Positions 9,963 to 61,812 of a stretch of 64,000 nt of DNA are shown in pieces. Within the stretch, counting starts at the first letter, position 1, and each line of letters opens with the position of its first letter. Under the pieces are notes generated by a model. The model saw only the letters and a list, made by a program, of their open reading frames with translations. It searched no databases and had not been told where the DNA came from. The translations under genes and the position numbers were made by a program. Where the stretch lies: the NCBI RefSeq assembly GCF_056746865.1, contig NZ_CM163382.1; one strand, given 5' to 3'.

Positions 9963-11665
9963 TACAGAACCTTCACTGAAACCACTTCGTTGCCGTCAGC
10001 ATCCACTACGTGTACCGCACAGGCCATGCACGGGTCAAAGGAGTGAATGGTACGCACCACTTCCAGCGGTTTATTCGGATCGGCAACCGGTGTACCCACC
10101 AGCGACTGCTCGTAAGGACCGACGTCATCATTGAAGTTACGCGGACCAGAGTTCCAGGTTGATGGAACAACCGCCTGGTAGTTGCTGATGATACCGTCTT
10201 TAATAACCATCCAGTGAGAGAGCATACCGCGCGGCGCTTCGAGGAAGCCAACACCTTTGAATTCACCCGTTGCCGGAATGTTCGGCTTCACAAAGGTGGT
10301 GTGATCGCCTTTGCCGATATTGGTGATCAGTGCACTGTATTGGTTTTGCAGGATATCCTGCAATTCACAGCAGTGAACGGTACGACCAATAATACGGCCC
10401 AGCGTGGAGTGCAGCTGTGCCACTTCCAGCGTGTTGCCAGTCAGTTTCTGATAAATCGCAACGATTTCATTCAGTTTGTTCTGGGTAGATTCGCGACCTG
10501 CCGCCAGTTTCACCAGCATATTAGCCAGTGGCCCCACTTCTACCGTTTTGCCGTAGAAAGTCGGTGATTTCACCCAGGAATATTTCCCGTCGTCAGACCA
10601 ACCATCATAAGCCGGAATGGTGGTGCCTTCCCACGGTGCCTGCGGCGCTTCGTCTTTATACCAGGAGTGCTTCGCGCTTTCCTGAATGCCTTTGATCAGG
10701 TATTCATCGGAATGAGAAGTGATCGGACGATACGAGGACAGATCCGCATTCTCAATGTAGCCGCCCGGGAACAGGAAGCTGCCGTTTTTACTGTCGGTCG
10801 GGAATTCCGGCACGCTCAGGTAGTTCACCGCACCTTTACCGCGTGTCAGCCATTCCGGGTAGAACGCGGCAATAACTGCGGTATCAACCTTATAAACCTG
10901 CTCAACAAAGTCGCTCAGTTTGTCGATGAAAGACTTGATGTACATCAGGCGCTCAAGGTTCAGCACGCCCAAACCGTCGAGGTTGATCGGGTTCGCGACA
11001 CCACCTACCGCCAGGTTCTGAATGTGCGGCGTTTTACCGCCCAGCAGCGCCACGACGCGGTTAGCGTCACGCTGGCACTCCAACGCTTGCAGGTAGTGCG
11101 CTACCGCAATCAGGTTCACTTCCGGCGGCAGTTTCATCGCCGGATGACCCCAGTAGCCATTAGCGAAAATACCCAACTGACCGCTGGCAACCAGATCTTT
11201 GATCTTGTTCTGAACTTTGGTGAACTCTTCCGGACTGTTCAGGTGCCAGGTCGAAACGCCTTTCAGCATTTCGGAGGCTTTGGTTGGGTCAGCTTGCAGT
11301 GCAGAAGTGATGTCCACCCAGTCCAGCGCCGAAAGCTGATAGAAATGAACAATATGGTCATGCGTGGTGTGCGCAGCCAGAATGATGTTACGGATGTATT
11401 GCGCGTTAACCGGAACGTCGATATTCAGCGCACTTTCTGCCGCACGAACGGAAGACAGCGCGTGAGTGGTAGTACATACGCCACAGATACGTTGCACAAT
11501 CATCCATGCATCGCGCGGATCGCGGTTTTTCACGATCTCTTCCATGCCGCGCCACATGGTACCGGAAGCCCATGCTTTCGAAACGACGCCATTTTCGATT
11601 TCGCAATCGATGCGTAAATGCCCCTCAATACGGGTTACCGGATCAATAGTAATTCTCTGGCTCAT
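9962..11665 (-). CDS. hybC: [NiFe] hydrogenase 2 large subunit
   Basis: 567 aa; N-terminal RIEGH and C-terminal DPCMACAVH Ni-binding motifs. Confidence 0.95.
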   Translation of the reverse strand: MSQRITIDPVTRIEGHLRIDCEIENGVVSKAWASGTMWRGMEEIVKNRDPRDAWMIVQRICGVCTTTHALSSVRAAESALNIDVPVNAQYIRNIILAAHTTHDHIVHFYQLSALDWVDITSALQADPTKASEMLKGVSTWHLNSPEEFTKVQNKIKDLVASGQLGIFANGYWGHPAMKLPPEVNLIAVAHYLQALECQRDANRVVALLGGKTPHIQNLAVGGVANPINLDGLGVLNLERLMYIKSFIDKLSDFVEQVYKVDTAVIAAFYPEWLTRGKGAVNYLSVPEFPTDSKNGSFLFPGGYIENADLSSYRPITSHSDEYLIKGIQESAKHSWYKDEAPQAPWEGTTIPAYDGWSDDGKYSWVKSPTFYGKTVEVGPLANMLVKLAAGRESTQNKLNEIVAIYQKLTGNTLEVAQLHSTLGRIIGRTVHCCELQDILQNQYSALITNIGKGDHTTFVKPNIPATGEFKGVGFLEAPRGMLSHWMVIKDGIISNYQAVVPSTWNSGPRNFNDDVGPYEQSLVGTPVADPNKPLEVVRTIHSFDPCMACAVHVVDADGNEVVSVKVL

Positions 11666-19257: not shown

Positions 19258-19935
19258 AATGCGCCTATAAGGCTCTCTTACCAGCCGCGCCCTAACAGGC
19301 GCACACGATCTGACATTTGCATCCAACTTCGTTACTTACGGCCCGTAAACGGGCTGCCCGGATAGGGAATCGATAACTGCTCTCCCATTTTATCCTCTTC
19401 AAGCTGGTGCTTTATGTAATCCTGTATCTTCGCCGTGTTCTTACCCACCGTATCGACGTAGTACCCTCTGCACCAGAACTCCCTGTTCCTGTATTTGAAT
19501 TTCAAATCACCAAACTGCTCGTAAAGCATCAGACTGCTTTTCCCTTTCAGATATCCCATAAAGCCGGATACGCTCATTTTGGGCGGGATCTCCACAAGCA
19601 TATGGATATGATCTGCACAGCATTCAGCTTCCAGAATCCGTACACTTTTCCACTCACACAGCTTTCTCAAAATACTGCCTATTGCTCTACGCTTCTCTCT
19701 GTAGAACACCTGTCTTCGGTATTTTGGCGCAAATACTATGTGATATTTACAGTTCCATCGGGTGTGCGCTAAGCTCTTTTCGTTCCCCATTGGGACCCCC
19801 TTTTGATTTCTTGTTTGACACTTGCAGTTGCCAGACCGCAAGGTGTTTTAACAAATCAAAAGGGGTTTTAATAACTGGCTTAAAGCTGAAAGCTTTCCGG
19901 AACCCCCAGCCTAGCTGGGGGTTTTCTGTGCACAA
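19258..19935 (-). mobile_element. IS200-group insertion sequence (IS200/IS605 family); boundaries approximate, about +/-40 bp
   Basis: Contains a 152-aa IS200 TnpA ORF plus upstream hairpins (cccccagcctagctggggg at 19893-19911) typical of IS200 left end; no terminal inverted repeats, as expected for this family. Confidence 0.7.
19332..19790 (-). CDS. tnpA: IS200 transposase TnpA (Y1 HUH single-strand transposase)
   Basis: 152 aa from ATG at 19790 (MGNEKSLAHTRWNCKYHIVFAPKYRR...); HIH motif and C-terminal catalytic Tyr (GYYVDTVG); near-identical to remembered Salmonella IS200 TnpA. Confidence 0.9.
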   Translation of the reverse strand: MGNEKSLAHTRWNCKYHIVFAPKYRRQVFYREKRRAIGSILRKLCEWKSVRILEAECCADHIHMLVEIPPKMSVSGFMGYLKGKSSLMLYEQFGDLKFKYRNREFWCRGYYVDTVGKNTAKIQDYIKHQLEEDKMGEQLSIPYPGSPFTGRK

Positions 19936-49816: not shown

Positions 49817-50977
49817 ATGGAAAGAGTCAGTATTACCGAGCGCCCGGACTGGCGCGAAAAAGCCCACGAATACGGTTTCAATTTTCACACCATGTACGGC
49901 GAACCGTACTGGTGTGAAGATGCTTACTACAAGTTGACCCTCGCCCAGGTTGAAAAGCTGGAAGAAGTCACCGCCGAACTGCACCAGATGTGCCTGAAAG
50001 TGGTTGAAAAAGTGATCGCCAGCGATGAGCTGATGACCAAATTCCGCATTCCAAAACACACCTGGAGTTTTGTGCGCCAGTCATGGCTGACTCACCAGCC
50101 ATCGCTTTATTCGCGTCTTGATCTGGCGTGGGATGGTACTGGCGAACCTAAACTTCTGGAAAATAACGCCGATACGCCAACGTCACTGTATGAAGCCGCA
50201 TTCTTTCAGTGGATCTGGCTGGAAGATCAGCTTAACGCCGGTAACCTGCCGGAAGGCAGCGACCAGTTTAACAGTCTGCAAGAAAAGCTAATCGATCGCT
50301 TTGTCGAGTTGCGTGAACAGTATGGCTTCCAGTTGCTGCATCTCACCTGCTGTCGCGACACGGTGGAAGATCGCGGAACCATTCAGTATTTGCAGGACTG
50401 CGCGACAGAAGCTGAAATCGCTACTGAATTCCTCTACATCGACGATATCGGTTTAGGCGAAAAAGGTCAGTTCACGGATTTACAAGATCAGGTGATTTCT
50501 AACCTGTTCAAGCTGTATCCGTGGGAATTTATGCTGCGTGAGATGTTCTCCACCAAGCTGGAGGATGCAGGCGTACGCTGGCTGGAACCGGCGTGGAAGA
50601 GCATTATCTCCAACAAAGCGCTTCTACCGCTGTTGTGGGAGATGTTCCCGAATCACCCGAACCTGCTGCCCGCTTATTTTGCGGAAGATGATCATCCGCA
50701 AATGGAAAAATATGTGGTTAAACCGATCTTCTCCCGTGAAGGCGCAAACGTGTCGATCATTGAGAACGGCAAAACCATTGAAGCAGCGGAAGGTCCGTAT
50801 GGCGAAGAAGGGATGATTGTTCAGCAATTCCACCCGTTACCGAAATTCGGCGACAGCTATATGCTGATTGGTAGCTGGCTGGTTAACGATCAACCTGCCG
50901 GAATTGGCATTCGTGAAGACCGTGCATTGATCACCCAGGATATGTCTCGGTTTTATCCGCATATTTTTGTTGAGTAA
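49817..50977 (+). CDS. ygiC: ATP-grasp protein homologous to the synthetase domain of glutathionylspermidine synthetase
   Basis: 386 aa; similar to C-terminal half of gss product in same window. Confidence 0.9.
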
Positions 50978-51461
50978 TACTGTTCAATATTGCCCCGTTT
51001 ACCGGGGCAATTTATTATACTTCGCAAATCATCACCCCCATCTATATATAATCAATCACATCCATCACTTTTATTTAACATTAATTCCTAATTTAATATT
51101 AAATCGTCATATGTAAGCGATACTGTAATTAAATTAATCAATAAAATCACTTGGTAACCTATTGTTTTATGAGTTTATTTATATCCAACACCGCATCAAA
51201 AATAGATTTAATAATTAAAAAACAATGTCGCTGGGATCACACTACACAATATTGAATATTGTTATTGATATATTGCCCACCTAGTATCGACCAAAAGAAA
51301 ATATTTGTTACAGAGAAATACAAAAATTCTAAAACCAGTAAAAAATATTCATAACGATTATTATTAATACATTTTAATTCACAAAACAAATTTATTAGCA
51401 CCACCTCAACAGTCGATATTCATCATTATTATATATTTGCGTTATATAAGGAGATATATCC

Positions 51462-53258
51462 ATGTTTGATAAATATAGAAAAACTCTGGTAGCCGGAGCT
51501 GTGGCGATAACTCTGGGTTTGTCAGCACCGGGGGTGATGGCAGCAGGTTTTAAACCCGCACCACCTGCCGGGCAACTGGGTGCAGTCATTGTCGATCCCT
51601 ACGGCAATGCACCACTGACCGCTTTGGTTGACTTAGATAGCCATGTCATTTCTGATGTCAAAGTTACCGTCCATGGGAAGGGCGAAAAAGGCGTAGAAAT
51701 CAGCTATCCCGTGGGTCAGGAATCACTAAAAACTTATGATGGTGTACCGATTTTTGGTCTTTATCAGAAATTTGCTAACAAAGTGACCGTTGAGTGGAAA
51801 GAAAACGGCAAGGTCATGAAAGATGATTATGTGGTGCACACTTCGGCCATCGTCAATAATTACATGGATAACCGCTCTATCTCCGATTTACAACAGACCA
51901 AAGTTATTAAAGTCGCACCGGGTTTTGAAGATCGCCTCTATCTGGTTAATACCCACACCTTTACCGCCCAAGGTTCCGATCTCCACTGGCATGGTGAGAA
52001 AGATAAAAATGCCGGTATCCTTGATGCGGGTCCGGCAACCGGCGCACTACCTTTTGATATCGCGCCCTTTACTTTCATTGTCGATACCGAAGGTGAATAC
52101 CGCTGGTGGCTGGATCAAGACACTTTCTACGATGGTCGTGACCGCGATATCAACAAGCGTGGTTATCTGATGGGTATCCGCGAAACACCACGCGGCACCT
52201 TTACCGCTGTACAAGGTCAGCACTGGTACGAGTTCGACATGATGGGGCAGGTGCTCGAAGATCACAAACTACCGCGCGGATTTGCTGACGCCACTCATGA
52301 GTCCATTGAGACGCCTAATGGCACAGTATTGTTGCGCGTAGGTAAGAGCAATTACCGTCGCGATGACGGCGTACACGTCACCACCATTCGTGACCATATC
52401 CTCGAAGTCGATAAATCTGGTCGCGTTGTCGATGTATGGGATCTGACCAAGATCCTCGATCCGAAACGCGATGCACTGCTCGGCGCGCTGGATGCAGGTG
52501 CAGTTTGCGTTAACGTTGACCTTGCCCATGCAGGACAACAGGCAAAACTGGAACCGGATACACCGTTCGGCGACGCGCTGGGTGTAGGGCCAGGTCGTAA
52601 CTGGGCGCACGTTAACTCAATCGCCTATGACGCAAAAGATGACTCAATCATCCTCTCCTCTCGCCACCAGGGTGTTGTGAAAATTGGTCGTGATAAGCAA
52701 GTGAAATGGATCCTTGCGCCCTCTAAAGGTTGGGAAAAACCGCTGGCCAGCAAGCTGCTGAAACCGGTTGATGCTAACGGTAAGCCAATTACCTGTAACG
52801 AAAATGGCCTGTGCGAAAACTCAGACTTCGACTTTACCTACACCCAGCATACCGCCTGGATTTCCAGCAAAGGAACGCTCACCATTTTTGATAATGGCGA
52901 TGGGCGTCATCTGGAACAACCTGCCTTACCAACCATGAAATACTCCCGCTTTGTGGAATATAAGATTGATGAGAAGAAAGGCACCGTTCAGCAAGTGTGG
53001 GAATACGGTAAAGAACGTGGCTACGATTTCTATAGCCCGATTACCTCCATCATTGAATATCAAGCCGACCGTAACACCATGTTTGGCTTCGGTGGTTCTA
53101 TTCATTTGTTCGATGTCGGGCAGCCAACCGTCGGTAAGTTGAACGAAATCGATTACAAAACCAAAGAAGTGAAAGTGGAAATCGACGTGCTGTCAGATAA
53201 ACCCAATCAGACTCACTATCGTGCACTGTTAGTCCGTCCACAACAGATGTTCAAATAA
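51462..53258 (+). CDS. assT: Periplasmic arylsulfate sulfotransferase (ASST)
   Basis: 598 aa with Sec signal peptide; matches remembered AssT of uropathogenic E. coli. Confidence 0.85.
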   Translation: MFDKYRKTLVAGAVAITLGLSAPGVMAAGFKPAPPAGQLGAVIVDPYGNAPLTALVDLDSHVISDVKVTVHGKGEKGVEISYPVGQESLKTYDGVPIFGLYQKFANKVTVEWKENGKVMKDDYVVHTSAIVNNYMDNRSISDLQQTKVIKVAPGFEDRLYLVNTHTFTAQGSDLHWHGEKDKNAGILDAGPATGALPFDIAPFTFIVDTEGEYRWWLDQDTFYDGRDRDINKRGYLMGIRETPRGTFTAVQGQHWYEFDMMGQVLEDHKLPRGFADATHESIETPNGTVLLRVGKSNYRRDDGVHVTTIRDHILEVDKSGRVVDVWDLTKILDPKRDALLGALDAGAVCVNVDLAHAGQQAKLEPDTPFGDALGVGPGRNWAHVNSIAYDAKDDSIILSSRHQGVVKIGRDKQVKWILAPSKGWEKPLASKLLKPVDANGKPITCNENGLCENSDFDFTYTQHTAWISSKGTLTIFDNGDGRHLEQPALPTMKYSRFVEYKIDEKKGTVQQVWEYGKERGYDFYSPITSIIEYQADRNTMFGFGGSIHLFDVGQPTVGKLNEIDYKTKEVKVEIDVLSDKPNQTHYRALLVRPQQMFK

Positions 53259-53275
53259 TTAAGAAGGGAATAAAA

Positions 53276-53944
53276 ATGTCGAAATTAGGGATCTCATCAC
53301 TATTTAAAACCATACTGCTTACCGCAGCTTTGGCTGTTTCATTTACCGCTTCTGCATTTACCGAAGGCACGGATTACATGGTTCTGGAAAAACCTATTCC
53401 GAATGCCGACAAAACGCTGATTAAGGTATTTAGCTACGCCTGCCCGTTCTGTTACAAGTACGACAAAGCGGTTACCGGTCCGGTATCGGAAAAAGTGAAA
53501 GATATCGTTGCTTTTACTCCATTCCATCTGGAAACAAAAGGTGAATACGGCAAACAAGCAAGCGAAGTCTTTGCGGTCTTGATCAATAAAGATAAAGCAG
53601 CAGGTATTTCATTATTTGATGCTAACTCTCAGTTTAAGAAAGCCAAGTTTGCTTATTACGCGGCTTATCATGACAAAAAAGAACGCTGGTCTGATGGTAA
53701 AGATCCGGCTGCCTTTATCAAAACCGGACTGGACGCCGCAGGTATGAGTCAGGCCGATTTTGAAGCCGCGCTGAAAGAGCCTGCAGTTCAGGAAACGCTG
53801 GAAAAATGGAAAGCCTCTTATGAAGTTGCAAAAATCCAGGGCGTTCCGGCGTATGTCGTCAATGGTAAATACCTGATCTACACCAAGAGTATTAAATCTA
53901 TTGACTCAATGGCAGACCTTATCCGCGAGTTAGCAAGCAAATAA
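53276..53944 (+). CDS. dsbL: Periplasmic thiol:disulfide oxidoreductase, DsbA paralog (CPFC active site)
   Basis: 222 aa; signal peptide; CPFC motif read directly. Confidence 0.85.
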
Positions 53945-53958
53945 CAGGGAAACAGGCT

Positions 53959-54630
53959 ATGGGTATTAAGGGAATGTGGAAAGACCTTCGCACTTCACCG
54001 GTGGACACGCTGGTAAGATGGCAAGAACAACGTTTTTTGTGGTTGTTAATGGCCATTGCGATGGGCGCGTTAATTATCCTGGCGCACTCTTTCTTCCAGA
54101 TCTATCTCTACATGGCACCCTGTGAGCAATGTGTATACATTCGCTACGCCATGTTTGTGATGGTTATTGGAGGATTGGTTGCAGCGATCAACCCAAAGAA
54201 CATCATCCTAAAGCTAATTGGCTGCGTGATGGCATTTTACGGCAGCATTTTGGGACTGAAGTTTTCGCTCAAACTGAACGATATCCACCATGCAGTACAT
54301 AATCCGGATCCCGATTCACTGTTTGGCGTACAGGGTTGCTCTACCGATCCAACTTTTCCCTTTAACCTGCCGCTGGCACAGTGGGCACCAAATTGGTTCA
54401 AGCCTACCGGGGATTGTGGCTATGACGCACCAATCGTTCCTGATGGCGTCACACTGAGCAGCACGCAACAGTGGTTTGTGGAAATGTATCAGCAATCTGA
54501 AGGCTGGTATCTGCTACCACCATGGCATTTTATGAATATGGCTCAGGCTTGTATGCTGGCTTTTGGTATGTGTCTGGTGCTGCTGGTCATTATGAGTGGC
54601 GCATGGGCGCTTAAAATCATCAGAGGCTAA
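53959..54630 (+). CDS. dsbI: Membrane disulfide-bond oxidoreductase, DsbB paralog
   Basis: 223 aa; periplasmic-loop Cys pairs CEQC and C...C; multiple TM helices. Confidence 0.85.
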
Positions 54631-54638
54631 CTCAGCAA

Positions 54639-54675
54639 CACCCGAAGCCAGTCGTTCTGGCTTCGGGTTCTTTTA
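54639..54675. terminator. Bidirectional terminator between dsbI and ygiD
   Basis: acccgaagccagtcgttctggcttcgggt hairpin then tcttttatt. Confidence 0.7.
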
Positions 54676-55464
54676 TTAACCTATCTGCACCGACAGCATA
54701 CTTAAACTGCCCATTTCTATACCATCGACCGGAATGGTAATTGGCTCCTGCCCATCCCACGCACCTAAGACATACAACAACGGCAGATAGTGCTCTGGCG
54801 TTGGATTCGATAACGCGCCACCTTCATGGTCGAGATAATTCACCAGAGGATGCTGCTCTACCGGCCCTTGCCACGTCAGATTCGCTTTCACATACTCATT
54901 AAACGACATCGCCCACGGATACGGTGAACTATCACCGTGCCACTTCACCGTACGCAGGTTATGCACCACGTTACCGCTGGCGACCAACATTATTCCTTCA
55001 TCCCGCAGCGCTGCCAGTTTGCGCCCCATTTCGAAATGCCAGGCGGCAGGTTTGCTACTGTCGATACTCAACTGCACCATCGGGATATCCGCTTGCGGAT
55101 ACATCTTAATCAGCACGCCCCACGAGCCGTGGTCAAAGCCCCAGGCTTCTTTATCCAGCGTCACCGGGACCGGCGCTAACAGCTCAACCAGATGCTGTGC
55201 CAGCGCAGGCGAACCCGGAGCAGGATAATGCGTGTCGTACAGCGCCTGCGGGAAGCCACCAAAGTCATGAATCGTGGGCGGCGTCTCCATCGCGGTCACT
55301 CCTGTTCCACGGGTAAACCAGTGAGCCGAAACCACCACAATCGCTTGCGGGCGTGGCAATGTCATCCCCAACTTCTGCCAGCTGCGGGTATACAAATTAT
55401 CTTCCAGCACGTTCATCGGACTACCGTGACCTAAAAACAATGCTGGCATACGTGTTGAAGACAT
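54676..55464 (-). CDS. ygiD: Extradiol ring-cleavage dioxygenase, 4,5-DOPA dioxygenase-like
   Basis: 262 aa from ATG at 55464 (MSSTRMPALFLGHGSPMN...). Confidence 0.9.
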   Translation of the reverse strand: MSSTRMPALFLGHGSPMNVLEDNLYTRSWQKLGMTLPRPQAIVVVSAHWFTRGTGVTAMETPPTIHDFGGFPQALYDTHYPAPGSPALAQHLVELLAPVPVTLDKEAWGFDHGSWGVLIKMYPQADIPMVQLSIDSSKPAAWHFEMGRKLAALRDEGIMLVASGNVVHNLRTVKWHGDSSPYPWAMSFNEYVKANLTWQGPVEQHPLVNYLDHEGGALSNPTPEHYLPLLYVLGAWDGQEPITIPVDGIEMGSLSMLSVQIG

Positions 55465-55606
55465 GATGATATCCTTAACTAAAGGTGTCATTTTGATATC
55501 CTCACAATACGCTTGTTCGGCGGAGTAAGAACCCGGATAACAATGATGATGATCATCAGTTATTTTGACGATCTGCCTGAAGGTGAAGATTTATAAGGAG
55601 TTGTCG

Positions 55607-56380
55607 ATGTCAGTACCTCTCATTCTGACCATACTGGCGGGGGCAGCCACGTTTATTGGCGCGTTTCTCGGCGTTCTCGGGCAAAAACCCTCGAACCGCT
55701 TACTGGCGTTTTCGCTAGGATTTGCGGCGGGGATCATGTTGCTCATCTCATTAATGGAAATGCTTCCTGCCGCACTAGCAGCTGAAGGAATGTCGCCTGT
55801 GTTGGGTTATGGAATGTTTATCTTCGGTCTGCTTGGCTATTTTGGCCTGGACCGCATGTTGCCACATGCGCATCCGCAGGATTTAATGCAAAAATCGGTG
55901 CAGCCGTTGCCAAAATCGATCAAGCGCACAGCCATTCTGCTCACTCTCGGCATCAGTCTGCATAACTTCCCGGAAGGGATTGCCACCTTTGTCACTGCGA
56001 GCAGCAACCTGGAGCTGGGCTTTGGCATCGCACTGGCCGTTGCGTTACACAATATTCCTGAAGGTCTGGCGGTTGCAGGCCCGGTTTACGCGGCAACGGG
56101 GTCTAAACGCACCGCGATTCTGTGGGCGGGGATTTCTGGACTGGCAGAAATTCTTGGTGGTGTGCTGGCGTGGTTAATCCTCGGTAGCATGATTTCCCCG
56201 GTGGTCATGGCGGCAATCATGGCGGCGGTTGCAGGAATTATGGTGGCGCTCTCGGTTGATGAATTAATGCCGCTCGCCAAAGAGATTGACCCTAATAATA
56301 ACCCCAGCTATGGCGTACTATGTGGAATGTCAGTGATGGGATTCAGTTTAGTGCTGCTACAAACGGCGGGAATTGGTTAA
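55607..56380 (+). CDS. zupT: ZIP-family zinc (divalent metal) transporter
   Basis: 257 aa from ATG at 55607 ([10 protein letters not shown]...). Confidence 0.95.
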
Positions 56381-56437
56381 AAACAACATCAGAAGTTGTC
56401 CAGCGCATGGACAACTTCTGCCAGCTTCACGAAAGCC

Positions 56438-56608
56438 TTATTCTACCTTTTCGGCTGTCTCTTCTCTCGTACTGTTTAAGTATTTGTTCCGCGCTTCAAG
56501 CAGTGCGTCTCTGTCCTGGCGAAACGCCCGACAATAACGTTTCAAATGCAGGAAATAACCCACCACAACCAGAGCAATCAATACAATCCAGTACCAGGCG
56601 ATAAACAT
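56438..56608 (-). CDS. Candidate small single-pass membrane protein, 56 aa from ATG (track ORF starts at upstream TTG)
   Basis: N-terminal hydrophobic helix MFIAWYWIVLIALVVVGYFL then charged tail; aagggtaaaagg precedes ATG; AT-rich upstream region. Confidence 0.45.
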   Translation of the reverse strand: MFIAWYWIVLIALVVVGYFLHLKRYCRAFRQDRDALLEARNKYLNSTREETAEKVE

Positions 56609-56802
56609 CCTTTTACCCTTAATATTTAACAATACTAAACATTTAGCGCATAAATTTCACATATCCTTTTTCGGATATATTCATATGGTCGCATAATAAC
56701 GGAACAATTATATGATTTTGATCATAATGAAAAAGAATGCCTGATATTAATGAAATTTTCTCATAGAAAGAGAAGCGGAATTAACATCTTGCATAGCAGG
56801 GA

Positions 56803-56840
56803 AAAATAAAAACCGAAGCCTGCTACAACTTCGGTTTCTT
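56803..56840 (-). terminator. Rho-independent terminator downstream of ribB
   Basis: aaccgaagcctgctacaacttcggtt hairpin with flanking A/T runs. Confidence 0.65.
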
Positions 56841-56869
56841 GATTAAGGCAGTAAATTAAGCAGCGGTTT

Positions 56870-57523
56870 TCAGCTGGCTTTACGCTCATGTGCCTGACGA
56901 TAAGCCACCAGGTCTTCAATAGTCACGAGCGCCATATTGTGTTTATTGGCAAACTCAATGCACTCTGGTGCACGCGCCATCGTGCCATCGTCATTAGTCA
57001 GCTCACACAGCACACCAGCCGGTTTAAAGCCTGCCAGCGTCATCAGATCAATAGTCGCTTCAGTATGGCCGCCACGCGTCAGTACACCACCAGCCTGAGC
57101 GCGAAGTGGGAAAACGTGGCCCGGGCGATTCAGATCAGAAGGTTTTGCGTCATCGGCAATCGCTGCGCGAACGGTCGTAATACGGTCAGCGGCAGAAACA
57201 CCGGTAGTCACACCTTCAGCCGCTTCAATGGTCACGGTAAAACCGGTGCCATAGGCGCTGGTGTTATTTTCTACCATCATTGGCAGATCAAGTTGTTTAC
57301 GGCGATCTTCAGTAATGCACAGGCAAACAATACCGCTACCGTGGCGAATGGTCAGCGCCATCTGCTCAACGGTCATGGTTTCTGCCGGGAAGATCATATC
57401 GCCTTCGTTTTCACGGTCTTCATCATCAAGCACCATTACACCGCGTCCTTCACGCAGCGCAGCCAGTGCATTTTCAACACGTTCGAAAGGCGTACCAAAA
57501 GAGGAAAGTAGCGTCTGATTCAT
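56870..57523 (-). CDS. ribB: 3,4-dihydroxy-2-butanone 4-phosphate synthase
   Basis: 217 aa. Confidence 0.95.
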
Positions 57524-57599: not shown

Positions 57600-57770
57600 C
57601 GTGAGCGGGTCCATGCCCGACAGAATCGTTACTCTCTCCCATCCGGACTCTAACCGTCGGCCCCGGAATTACACCGGATCTGCTGTCCTTTGAGTTCGCA
57701 CCCAAAGCGCTCGCGGGCTTTCAACTGAGTTGATTTACCGCCGGTGGGGAATTTCGCCCCGCCCTGAGAA
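57600..57770 (-). promoter_or_regulatory. FMN riboswitch (RFN element) in the ribB leader
   Basis: Minus-strand leader contains conserved RFN segments gggcggggcgaaattccccaccggcgg ... ccgggg ... ggatgggagag upstream of ribB; boundaries approximate. Confidence 0.8.
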
Positions 57771-57896
57771 TAAGCGGATTCACTATAACGCTAATGATTA
57801 GCGCCAGCAACGCATAGCTTCACATAATTCTGGTTTATGACTTACCCTTATCGCACTACAATGGCACTCAACACCTATCAGTACAGGGAAACTACA

Positions 57897-61211: not shown

Positions 61212-61352
61212 GGGAAAGCCCCTCCCGAAGAAGGGGCCTTATAGAAGGAAAGGGTTATGATGAAGCTCGTCATCATACTGATTGTGTTGTTACTAGTAAG
61301 TTTCCAGGCTTATTAACAACCAATTCAGAGGGGGGAGAAATCCTCCCTTACC
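61212..61352 (-). ncRNA. sibD: Sib antisense sRNA (antitoxin), copy 1; ends approximate
   Basis: Antisense to ibs ORF; minus-strand terminator hairpin gccccttcttcgggaggggc plus T-run at about 61217-61240. Confidence 0.55.
61257..61316 (+). CDS. ibsD: Ibs type I toxin, 19 aa (MMKLVIILIVLLLVSFQAY)
   Basis: Hand-translated; hydrophobic 19-mer typical of Ibs; ggaaaggg SD-like sequence upstream. Confidence 0.7.
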   Translation: MMKLVIILIVLLLVSFQAY

Positions 61353-61588
61353 CTTGTTCCTTTACTTTAGGTTGAAAAAAAATCAGCGTCAAGAAGGTTT
61401 CTCTATCCCACATCCCTGGCCCAAAAAGCCGGGGATTTTTTATATCTGCGTTCCGCTAAAAGGTGCAAATGATCAGGCTGTTGCAGCATTTTGCGTGACG
61501 GCTCGGGGAAGGCAAAACTGCATCAGGGAAAGCATTGCGCGGGGTCTGGCGCTCATCAACAATCGGGGAGTCAGCAAGGGGCTGAAAC

Positions 61589-61729
61589 GGGAAAGCCCCT
61601 CCCGAAGAAGGGGCCTTGTATAAGGAAAGGGTTATGATGAAGCTGGTCATCATACTGATTGTGTTGTTACTCGTAAGTTTCGCAGCTTATTAACAGCCAA
61701 TCAGAGGGGGGAGAAATCCTCCCTCACCC
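61589..61729 (-). ncRNA. sibE: Sib antisense sRNA (antitoxin), copy 2; ends approximate
   Basis: Same architecture as copy 1. Confidence 0.55.
61634..61693 (+). CDS. ibsE: Ibs type I toxin, 19 aa (MMKLVIILIVLLLVSFAAY)
   Basis: Hand-translated; differs from copy 1 by Q17A. Confidence 0.7.
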   Translation: MMKLVIILIVLLLVSFAAY

Positions 61730-61812
61730 TTGTTCCTTTACTTTAGGTTGAAAAAAAAACAGCGTCAATAGGCCTGCCAGGTTCGAAGCGAGATCTGTGA
61801 ACCGCTTTCCGG

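Follow-up and report, generated by a model that had tools for sequence, protein, structure and literature searches.

The closest described counterpart of the locus considered here is the assT-dsbL-dsbI operon of Escherichia coli CFT073, reportedly characterized by Grimshaw et al. in 2008 (J Mol Biol 380:667) and by Malojcic et al. in 2008. We analyzed the gap between ygiC and ygiD in a 64,000-nt stretch of contig NZ_CM163382.1 (RefSeq assembly GCF_056746865.1), hereafter referred to as the window, in which the same three genes are found. According to the literature, AssT is a periplasmic homodimer which transfers sulfuryl groups between phenolic compounds without 3′-phosphoadenosine 5′-phosphosulfate (PAPS), by a ping-pong mechanism via sulfo-His436, and which has one essential disulfide, supplied in vivo by DsbL/DsbI (PMC13426309). 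Its natural sulfuryl donor and acceptor have not been established, and the physiological substrate is still open (PMC13426309), as the original prediction had stated. DsbL carries a CPFC motif, ranks with about −95 mV among the most strongly oxidising proteins of the DsbA type and acts specifically on the sulfotransferase; upregulation in urinary tract infection has also been reported (PMC8405906). In Salmonella Typhi the three genes are co-transcribed, with H-NS as repressor and LeuO as activator (PMC4264507). The module has thus been described in both uropathogenic E. coli (UPEC) and Salmonella, in line with the original prediction (PMC6067686, PMC8405906, PMC4264507). Since publications already cover the enzyme, its catalytic mechanism, the disulfide, both helpers and the link to extraintestinal E. 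coli, and the operon is known structurally, biochemically and as an H-NS/LeuO target in S. Typhi, its identification in the window adds nothing new. The mechanistic literature rests on the CFT073 proteins, which are identical or nearly identical to those of the window.

There is very little doubt that the interval 50978–54675 holds an intact copy of this operon. The convergent genes ygiC and ygiD (the latter on the minus strand) end at 50977 and 54676, respectively, so that the interval is exactly the gap between their stop codons. The open reading frame (ORF) list contains the three co-oriented genes where they had been predicted (Table 1), with intergenic gaps of 17 nt (assT-dsbL) and 14 nt (dsbL-dsbI) and a single terminator downstream, a layout from which one transcription unit is predicted. 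Slot, gene order and spacing are the same as in CFT073. The comparison with the CFT073 proteins proposed in the original prediction shows that mature AssT is 100% identical (3ELQ) and that DsbL differs by two substitutions (3C7M), while dsbI is 98.4% identical at the DNA level and the terminators differ by one loop base. Matches to PDB, Pfam and NCBIfam bear out the gene identities.

Mature AssT (residues 28–598) is identical to the crystallised CFT073 aryl sulfotransferase (PDB 3ELQ, 3ETS and 3ETT), an enzyme for which the PDB comparison returned seven crystal-structure entries. In Pfam it matches PF17425 (residues 42–127, E-value = 2.6e−28) and, over the full length of the model, PF05935 (residues 146–587, E-value = 7e−136); no NCBIfam model matched AssT, and its identity was set through PDB and Pfam. 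Using the list of functional residues given in PMC13426309, we found all catalytic and sulfuryl-binding residues in place, namely, His436, His252, His356, Asn358, Arg374 and Thr501 in mature numbering (positions 463, 279, 383, 385, 401 and 528 of the precursor). Cys418 and Cys424, predicted to form the disulfide, are both present. The N-terminus (MFDKYRKTLVAGAVAITLGLSAPGVMA|AGFKP) shows the basic n-region, the hydrophobic core and the A-x-A-like site of a signal peptide (residues 1–27), and the crystallised chain begins at residue 28. The protein is therefore predicted to be the precursor of an exported, periplasmic, PAPS-independent aryl-sulfate sulfotransferase.

DsbL matches PDB 3C7M over residues 28–222 (E-value = 2.1e−126). 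Its only cysteines are Cys56 and Cys59 of the CPFC motif at residues 56–59, and the GVP at 189–191 is a candidate for the cis-Pro loop. Because it scores 78.3 bits, far below the 279-bit cut-off of the DsbA equivalog NF008198, it is a DsbA paralogue rather than DsbA itself. DsbI, in turn, scores 418.8 bits with the NCBIfam model for DsbI (NF003304, cut-off 212) and 82.8 bits with the DsbB equivalog (cut-off 157), and matches the Pfam DsbB family PF02600 over residues 24–211. Its CEQC motif (residues 55–58) and Cys127/Cys153 align, respectively, to Cys41/44 and Cys104/130 of E. coli DsbB structures, which makes it by sequence a DsbB-type inner-membrane re-oxidase of DsbL. Both active-site motifs had been correctly noted in the original prediction. 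The pair shares its folds and electron path with DsbA-DsbB of E. coli K-12, in which a CXXC thioredoxin-fold oxidase is re-oxidised by a four-cysteine membrane protein. However, DsbL and DsbI are distant paralogues of these proteins and differ from them in motifs (CPFC and CEQC instead of CPHC and CVLC), in being encoded together with one client and in their narrow substrate range (PMC8405906).

The last property touches on an alternative according to which DsbL/DsbI represent a general second oxidative-folding system for several virulence proteins, with AssT being just one co-located client. It has been suggested that DsbL/DsbI may be devoted to a group of virulence substrates (PMC6067686), and in vitro the sulfotransferase is oxidised similarly fast by DsbA, which indicates functional redundancy with DsbL (PMC8405906). 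Nevertheless, AssT is the specific in vivo substrate in the literature (PMC13426309, PMC8405906), and assT, dsbL and dsbI occur together in all those Enterobacterales loci for which the context suffices (about 20 loci in 10 genera), where one terminator and, in most taxa, one promoter are common to the whole unit irrespective of the slot. In addition, assT adjoins dsbL-like genes in Campylobacter as well. We therefore find such a general role improbable.

Table 1. Genes and predicted regulatory features in the ygiC-ygiD interval of the window
Feature	Position	Strand	Description
assT leader/regulatory region	50978-51461	+	484 nt, 27% GC
ygiC intrinsic terminator hairpin	50989-51011	+	9-bp stem, then TTATTAT; -15.1 kcal/mol, z = -3.6
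CRP-like operator	51226-51241	+	TGTCG-CTGGGA-TCACA, 8/10 core positions of TGTGA-N6-TCACA, centre 51233.5
17-bp perfect palindrome	51247-51263		ACAATATTGAATATTGT, i.e. ACAATATT-G-AATATTGT; overlaps predicted -35 of assT
Predicted weak sigma-70 promoter	51259-51287	+	-35 TTGTTA 51259-51264, 17-nt spacer, -10 TAGTAT 51282-51287
Translation-initiation block	51443-51464	+	TATATAAGGAGATATATCCATG; Shine-Dalgarno AAGGAG at 51448-51453
assT	51462-53258	+	598 aa; ORF list
dsbL	53276-53944	+	222 aa; ORF list
dsbI	53959-54630	+	223 aa; ORF list
Operon intrinsic terminator	54640-54675	+	12-bp stem 54640-54668 (8 G-C pairs), then T-run TCTTTTAT; abuts ygiD stop codon

To place the locus within the species, we surveyed 5,426 complete E. 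coli genomes, in 5,425 of which the flanks were found. The operon is present in 1,508 genomes (28%), always in the ygiC|ygiD slot and essentially as a single copy. Carriers include CFT073, Nissle 1917, E2348/69, ATCC 25922 (Seattle 1946) and ST131, whereas K-12 MG1655, DH5alpha, HB101 and a BL21 derivative have the flanks only. Strain GN02270, a blood isolate from the USA, is 100% identical to the window across the tolC-ribB region and 99.7% identical over most of its length. At the K-12 MG1655 junction (positions 2479–2515 of the extracted locus) the island is replaced by a 37-nt spacer with its own hairpin similar to repetitive extragenic palindromic (REP) elements; the spacer is unrelated to either island end, and no remnant of the island is detectable. 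The absence from K-12, stated in the original prediction, is thus confirmed. We found no plasmid-borne copy of the cassette. The only close matches filed as plasmids are two 4.9-Mb records (NZ_CP141089.1 and NZ_CP134663.1), by their size evidently mislabelled chromosomes; the one 'plasmid' place reported when E. coli genomes were searched is probably due to these.

The original prediction described the three genes as an accessory module in a core backbone. As far as variable presence is concerned, this holds true, but the signs expected of a mobile island are missing: no integrase or transposase ORFs were found in the ORF list, no direct repeats flank the locus, and the whole window contains no tRNA genes. 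Furthermore, GC content of the coding regions (0.490 for assT, 0.435 for dsbL and 0.481 for dsbI) does not depart much from that of the window (0.508), and extreme values are confined to the non-coding leader (0.271). When species-representative genomes were scanned and the synteny of the loci found was mapped, the operon turned out to lie in this slot also in E. whittamii, Escherichia sp. MOD1-EC7003, a second Escherichia species representative (L005), E. albertii (with partial flanks) and Pseudocitrobacter. In three of the four Escherichia species, namely, E. whittamii, E. albertii and the L005 species, the divergence of the island genes roughly equals that of the flanks. Since mobility signatures are absent, coding GC is near average and the same slot is occupied in four other Escherichia species, loss in the lineage leading to K-12 is likelier than insertion into the lineage of the window. 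Occupancy of the ygiC|ygiD slot therefore probably predates E. coli, the K-12 state being most simply explained as a loss. Rather than a mobile island, the locus was probably present between ygiC and ygiD already in the ancestor of Escherichia. This matters for the interpretation of genes considered to be 'UPEC-specific'.

Citrobacter, S. arizonae and Intestinirhabdus have the cassette about 1.7 kb from this slot, between zupT and ribB, and in them ygiC and ygiD are adjacent across a REP-like spacer; in Budviciaceae and Edwardsiella it lies elsewhere in the genome. Campylobacter encodes assT together with dsbL/dsbI-like genes, often in two copies. Such a distribution bears on the opposite scenario, in which the empty ygiC-ygiD junction is ancestral and a horizontally acquired cassette, bringing a promoter and a terminator of its own, entered it by insertion. 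The cassette keeps its terminator and, for most taxa, its promoter blocks in the zupT|ribB slot or elsewhere, and so must have moved at least once. Within E. coli its distribution is patchy, the leader is AT-rich, and GC content of dsbL is below that of the window. On the other hand, besides lacking mobility genes, repeats and plasmid-borne copies, the island occupies the same slot in at least four non-coli Escherichia species and in three of them has diverged about as much as its surroundings. Any insertion must then predate the genus, and the locus would be ancestral for E. coli regardless. Taken together, we regard the insertion scenario as rather unlikely.

Several observations nonetheless weigh against a simple history of vertical descent and loss. 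In MOD1-EC7003, the island genes are only 82–85% identical, far more diverged than the flanks (92–97%), so that vertical descent alone does not account for them. Nor is the K-12 spacer a clean deletion scar. Its REP-like hairpin resembles ygiC-ygiD spacers of Citrobacter and Salmonella, genera in which this junction is empty, and the spacer could conceivably be an old empty allele, as the insertion scenario would have it. The same scenario might also explain the elevated divergence of the last 150 nt of ygiD in the comparison of K-12 with both occupied alleles (11 differences versus 2), with no such rise on the ygiC side. Finally, the species scan is insensitive, having missed the known carrier S. 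enterica subsp. enterica, and absences (e.g. in E. fergusonii) cannot be read from it. None of the results contradicts the identification of the operon. Loss toward K-12 from an ancestrally occupied slot remains the reading that we prefer.

The same cassette can be followed at the level of individual regulatory elements. Compared to Salmonella enterica (Typhi, Typhimurium) assT-dsbL-dsbI and Citrobacter astA-dsbA clusters, the window has the same three genes in the same order, and AssT of Citrobacter and S. arizonae is 85–88% identical to that of the window. S. arizonae and Citrobacter, except for C. amalonaticus, also share the terminator hairpin, the Shine-Dalgarno block and a CRP-like box followed at a constant distance of 40 nt by a −10 element. 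The differences are that their cassette lies between zupT and ribB, and that the AT-rich stretches between the conserved blocks cannot be aligned with those of the window.

The AT-rich leader noted in the original prediction is evident from sliding-window analysis (400-nt minimum of GC content 0.258). To delineate its functional parts, we aligned upstream regions of assT from both chromosomal slots and looked for conserved blocks amid otherwise unalignable AT-rich DNA. One such block, AACAATGTCG-N5-GATCACACT, includes the CRP-like box. In all 15 sequences (Escherichia, Pseudocitrobacter, Citrobacter and S. arizonae, representing both slots) GATCACA is invariant and AATG nearly so, whereas the spacer of the box is only 50% conserved. 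A promoter pattern follows, TTGTnn, a 17-nt spacer and TA(C/G)(T/C)AT, with the −10 element seen as TACTAT, TAGTAT or TACCAT. In 15/15 sequences the −10 element lies exactly 40 nt after TCACA, whereas it is between 135 and 176 nt away from the ATG. Neither the box nor the promoter block is present in C. amalonaticus and Intestinirhabdus. In the window, transcription is predicted to start near 51294–51295, giving a 5′ untranslated region of about 167 nt and placing the centre of the CRP-like box 60.5–61.5 nt upstream of the start, which corresponds to class I CRP geometry. The core promoter, proposed from its conservation, matches 8/12 consensus positions, as expected for an activator-dependent promoter. 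Because of this low score, which is below the scan threshold, a generic promoter scan missed it, reporting five promoter-like sites where 8.1 were expected.

Assignment of the box to CRP follows from consensus and geometry, and the site would probably add catabolite control of assT. In the literature searched, we found no paper pairing assT with CRP. The AT-rich leader fits the H-NS/LeuO control known from S. Typhi, and H-NS presumably binds and silences it. Two points should be held against this regulatory picture. First, the CRP assignment depends on an 8/10 consensus match and on geometry measured from a predicted start site; the motif has one match in 64 kb with 0.47 expected, and at least one match appears in 34 of 100 shuffles, so that its occurrence alone is not significant. 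Second, control by H-NS and LeuO is extrapolated from S. Typhi. If real, the CRP-like box suggests conditions for expressing a normally silent operon and thereby a practical route toward the physiological substrate.

Further downstream, most Escherichia, Citrobacter and S. arizonae leaders have the translation-initiation block TATATAAGGAGATATATCCATG unchanged; MOD1-EC7003, C. amalonaticus and Intestinirhabdus deviate from it at one or two positions, and Pseudocitrobacter at more. A translational hairpin at the Shine-Dalgarno/start block was considered but found no support, the fold being no better than that of shuffled sequences (z = +0.59). A riboswitch or known small RNA in the leader was dismissed after no Rfam family was detected over 50500–55000 at permissive thresholds. 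The palindrome overlapping the −35 element is perfect only in the leader haplotype of the window and E. whittamii, and is imperfect in B2 strains.

At its other end, the operon is closed by a strong hairpin (−23.5 kcal/mol, z = −7.3, with 0/200 shuffles folding as well). The original prediction called it a bidirectional terminator. It is indeed a canonical intrinsic terminator on the plus strand, but on the opposite, ygiD strand the same stem is followed by the U-poor tail GUGUUGCUGAGUU, for which the scan made no terminator call. The terminator is thus effectively unidirectional. A homologous hairpin, CCGAAGCC...GGCTTCGG, follows dsbI in Citrobacter, S. arizonae and Intestinirhabdus despite the different slot. 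The ygiC terminator sits within the interval that K-12 lacks, and in the alignment compensatory changes preserve its stem in Escherichia sp. MOD1-EC7003, with CCCTT/AAGGG, and in E. albertii, with CCTGG/CCGGG. In K-12, Citrobacter, S. arizonae and Intestinirhabdus, the empty ygiC-ygiD junctions hold REP-like hairpins (in S. arizonae, GTGCCGGATGGCGGCGCAAAGCGCCTTATCCGGCCTA), whereas the occupied allele has two unrelated hairpins.

Conservation of these elements also helps to judge whether the operon in this lineage might be a decaying or permanently silent relic. Some strains have insertion sequences at the locus: in CE0007a (NZ_CP119011.1) an IS4-like ISVsa5 is inserted in an island otherwise 100% identical to that of the window, and in MS 196-1 (NZ_CP146681.1) an IS3-family element splits assT. 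These are occasional inactivation events. Together with the leader, AT-rich as is typical of H-NS-silenced DNA, and the loss of the operon from 72% of E. coli genomes, they are what one would expect of a relic. Yet none of the three reading frames is interrupted, no catalytic residue is missing, and different genera have kept the promoter, the Shine-Dalgarno block and the terminator. Purifying selection on all three genes is strong, with ratios of non-synonymous to synonymous divergence (dN/dS) of 0.014–0.07 between deep E. coli lineages (0.016–0.05 for assT). Upregulation in urinary tract infection (PMC8405906) does not agree with permanent silence either, and decay of the operon is very improbable.

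Leaders of the E. coli operons fall into two discrete classes. Among the 1,508 carriers, 261 leaders are at least 95% identical to that of the window, 1,247 are 75–77% identical, and none are in between; no recognisable reference strain was found among the 261 window-type genomes listed. The allele of the window is of non-B2 type; CFT073 represents the second haplotype, its 484-nt leader being 76–78% identical to that of the window (Jukes-Cantor distance 0.29). Per 200 nt, the window and CFT073 differ by 24–31% in the leader, 0.5–4% in assT, 0–3.5% in dsbI and 7.5–10% in the 3′ part of dsbL. Synonymous divergence (dS) is 0.09 for assT, 0.27 for dsbL, 0.06 for dsbI and 0.13–0.15 for the flanks. 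The idea that the leader is hypervariable beyond neutral drift had to be tempered given the dS of dsbL, and only bimodality and haplotype discordance stay notable. The latter consists in the leader of the window being closer to that of E. whittamii (0.126) than to that of CFT073 (0.289), whereas the gene relationships are the reverse, which implies either recombination or retention of old haplotypes. A different mosaic was observed in the ST131 strain EC958, in which the 5′ half of assT (positions 4477–5200 of the extracted locus, corresponding to 51408–52200 of the window) is 4.5–11% divergent per 200 nt from CFT073. The comparison gives 12.5 non-synonymous differences and a dS of 0.157, as opposed to 0.028 for dsbL and dsbI next to it, which suggests a segment imported within B2.

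With this pattern, the leader exemplifies switched intergenic regions, a known form of horizontal regulatory transfer reportedly described in E. coli by Oren et al. (2014, PNAS) and by Thorpe et al. (2018, Piggy). As in such regions, two deeply diverged promoter-region alleles precede genes that have diverged much less, and the relations of the alleles conflict with the gene tree. The differences are that the divergence of the leader does not go far beyond the local synonymous range but lies at its upper end, and that core promoter blocks are kept in both alleles. In most Escherichia, Citrobacter and Salmonella loci the cassette comprises the CRP-like box 40 nt from a weak −10 element, the initiation block, the three genes and a common terminator. 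We tentatively propose, while giving it somewhat less than an even chance, that the operon has been maintained and moved as a self-contained regulatory cassette using two alternative slots in the tolC-ribB neighbourhood, with two ancient E. coli leader haplotypes around a conserved core and, possibly, a regulatory polymorphism. If the haplotypes indeed differ in their response to H-NS/LeuO or CRP, they would constitute a natural polymorphism tying sulfotransferase expression to carbon status and lineage, which could point to the conditions, and hence the substrate, for which AssT matters. In any case, the two leader alleles are natural material for comparing regulation in B2 and non-B2 carriers.

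Combining these observations with the published mechanism, the following picture may be drawn. The transcription unit would run from the weak sigma-70 promoter to the hairpin behind dsbI. The AT-rich leader would serve as a silencing platform as in S. Typhi, repressed by H-NS and relieved by LeuO, and the CRP-like site at about −61.5 would probably add catabolite control. AssT would be exported to the periplasm and form a homodimer, with a β-sandwich domain and a six-bladed β-propeller domain. There it would move a sulfuryl group from a phenolic sulfate ester onto another phenol, without PAPS, via the sulfo-His436 intermediate of the ping-pong reaction. The Cys418–Cys424 disulfide that AssT requires would be introduced by DsbL (CPFC, about −95 mV), itself recycled by DsbI in the inner membrane. 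As to its history, the locus would have been in place between ygiC and ygiD in the ancestor of Escherichia, lost toward K-12, and later reshuffled by homologous recombination.

More distant relatives of assT were also encountered. Campylobacter loci from metagenome-assembled genomes (L029, L032, L034, L036, L039, L041 and L050) encode two assT paralogues, 46% and 40% identical. One assT adjoins a dsbL-like gene (45%), and the other is divergently paired with dsbL-dsbI genes closer to those of E. coli (about 63% and 51–55%). Genuine plasmids of Salmonella enterica (80–194 kb) encode annotated aryl-sulfate sulfotransferases 41–46% identical to AssT, which by sequence appear to be distant paralogues, about as far away as the Campylobacter enzymes.

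A second presence/absence polymorphism is located within 2 kb of assT. In B2 strains CFT073 and EC958 (extracted loci, from position 10198; compared with 56380–56870 of the window), zupT and a yqiD-like ORF are followed by a fimbrial operon encoding a fimbrial-like protein and an usher. The window, in this respect different from CFT073 and like K-12, passes from yqiD directly to ribB. The fimbrial operon occupies the slot used by the assT cassette in Citrobacter and Salmonella. For ygiD (54676–55491), the longest ORF has 271 aa (ATG at 55491), nine codons more than the 262 aa of RefSeq (start at 55464); the shorter form is favoured, because the NCBIfam model aligns from residue 10.

Elsewhere in the window, a REP/bacterial interspersed mosaic element (Rfam naRNA4) at 8300–8376 separates regions with 97.4% (before) and 99.7% (after) identity to GN02270, the alignment beginning with an offset of 112 nt, and is probably a recombination boundary. 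An IS200-associated STnc490 RNA is found at 19800–19923, where GN02270 has an annotated IS200C transposase, and the mqsRA toxin-antitoxin pair is annotated in the collinear region of the same strain. ribB is preceded by a flavin mononucleotide (FMN) riboswitch (57627–57775), and two SIB antitoxin RNAs in tandem (61242–61768), paired with Ibs type I toxin genes, are located beside hldE.

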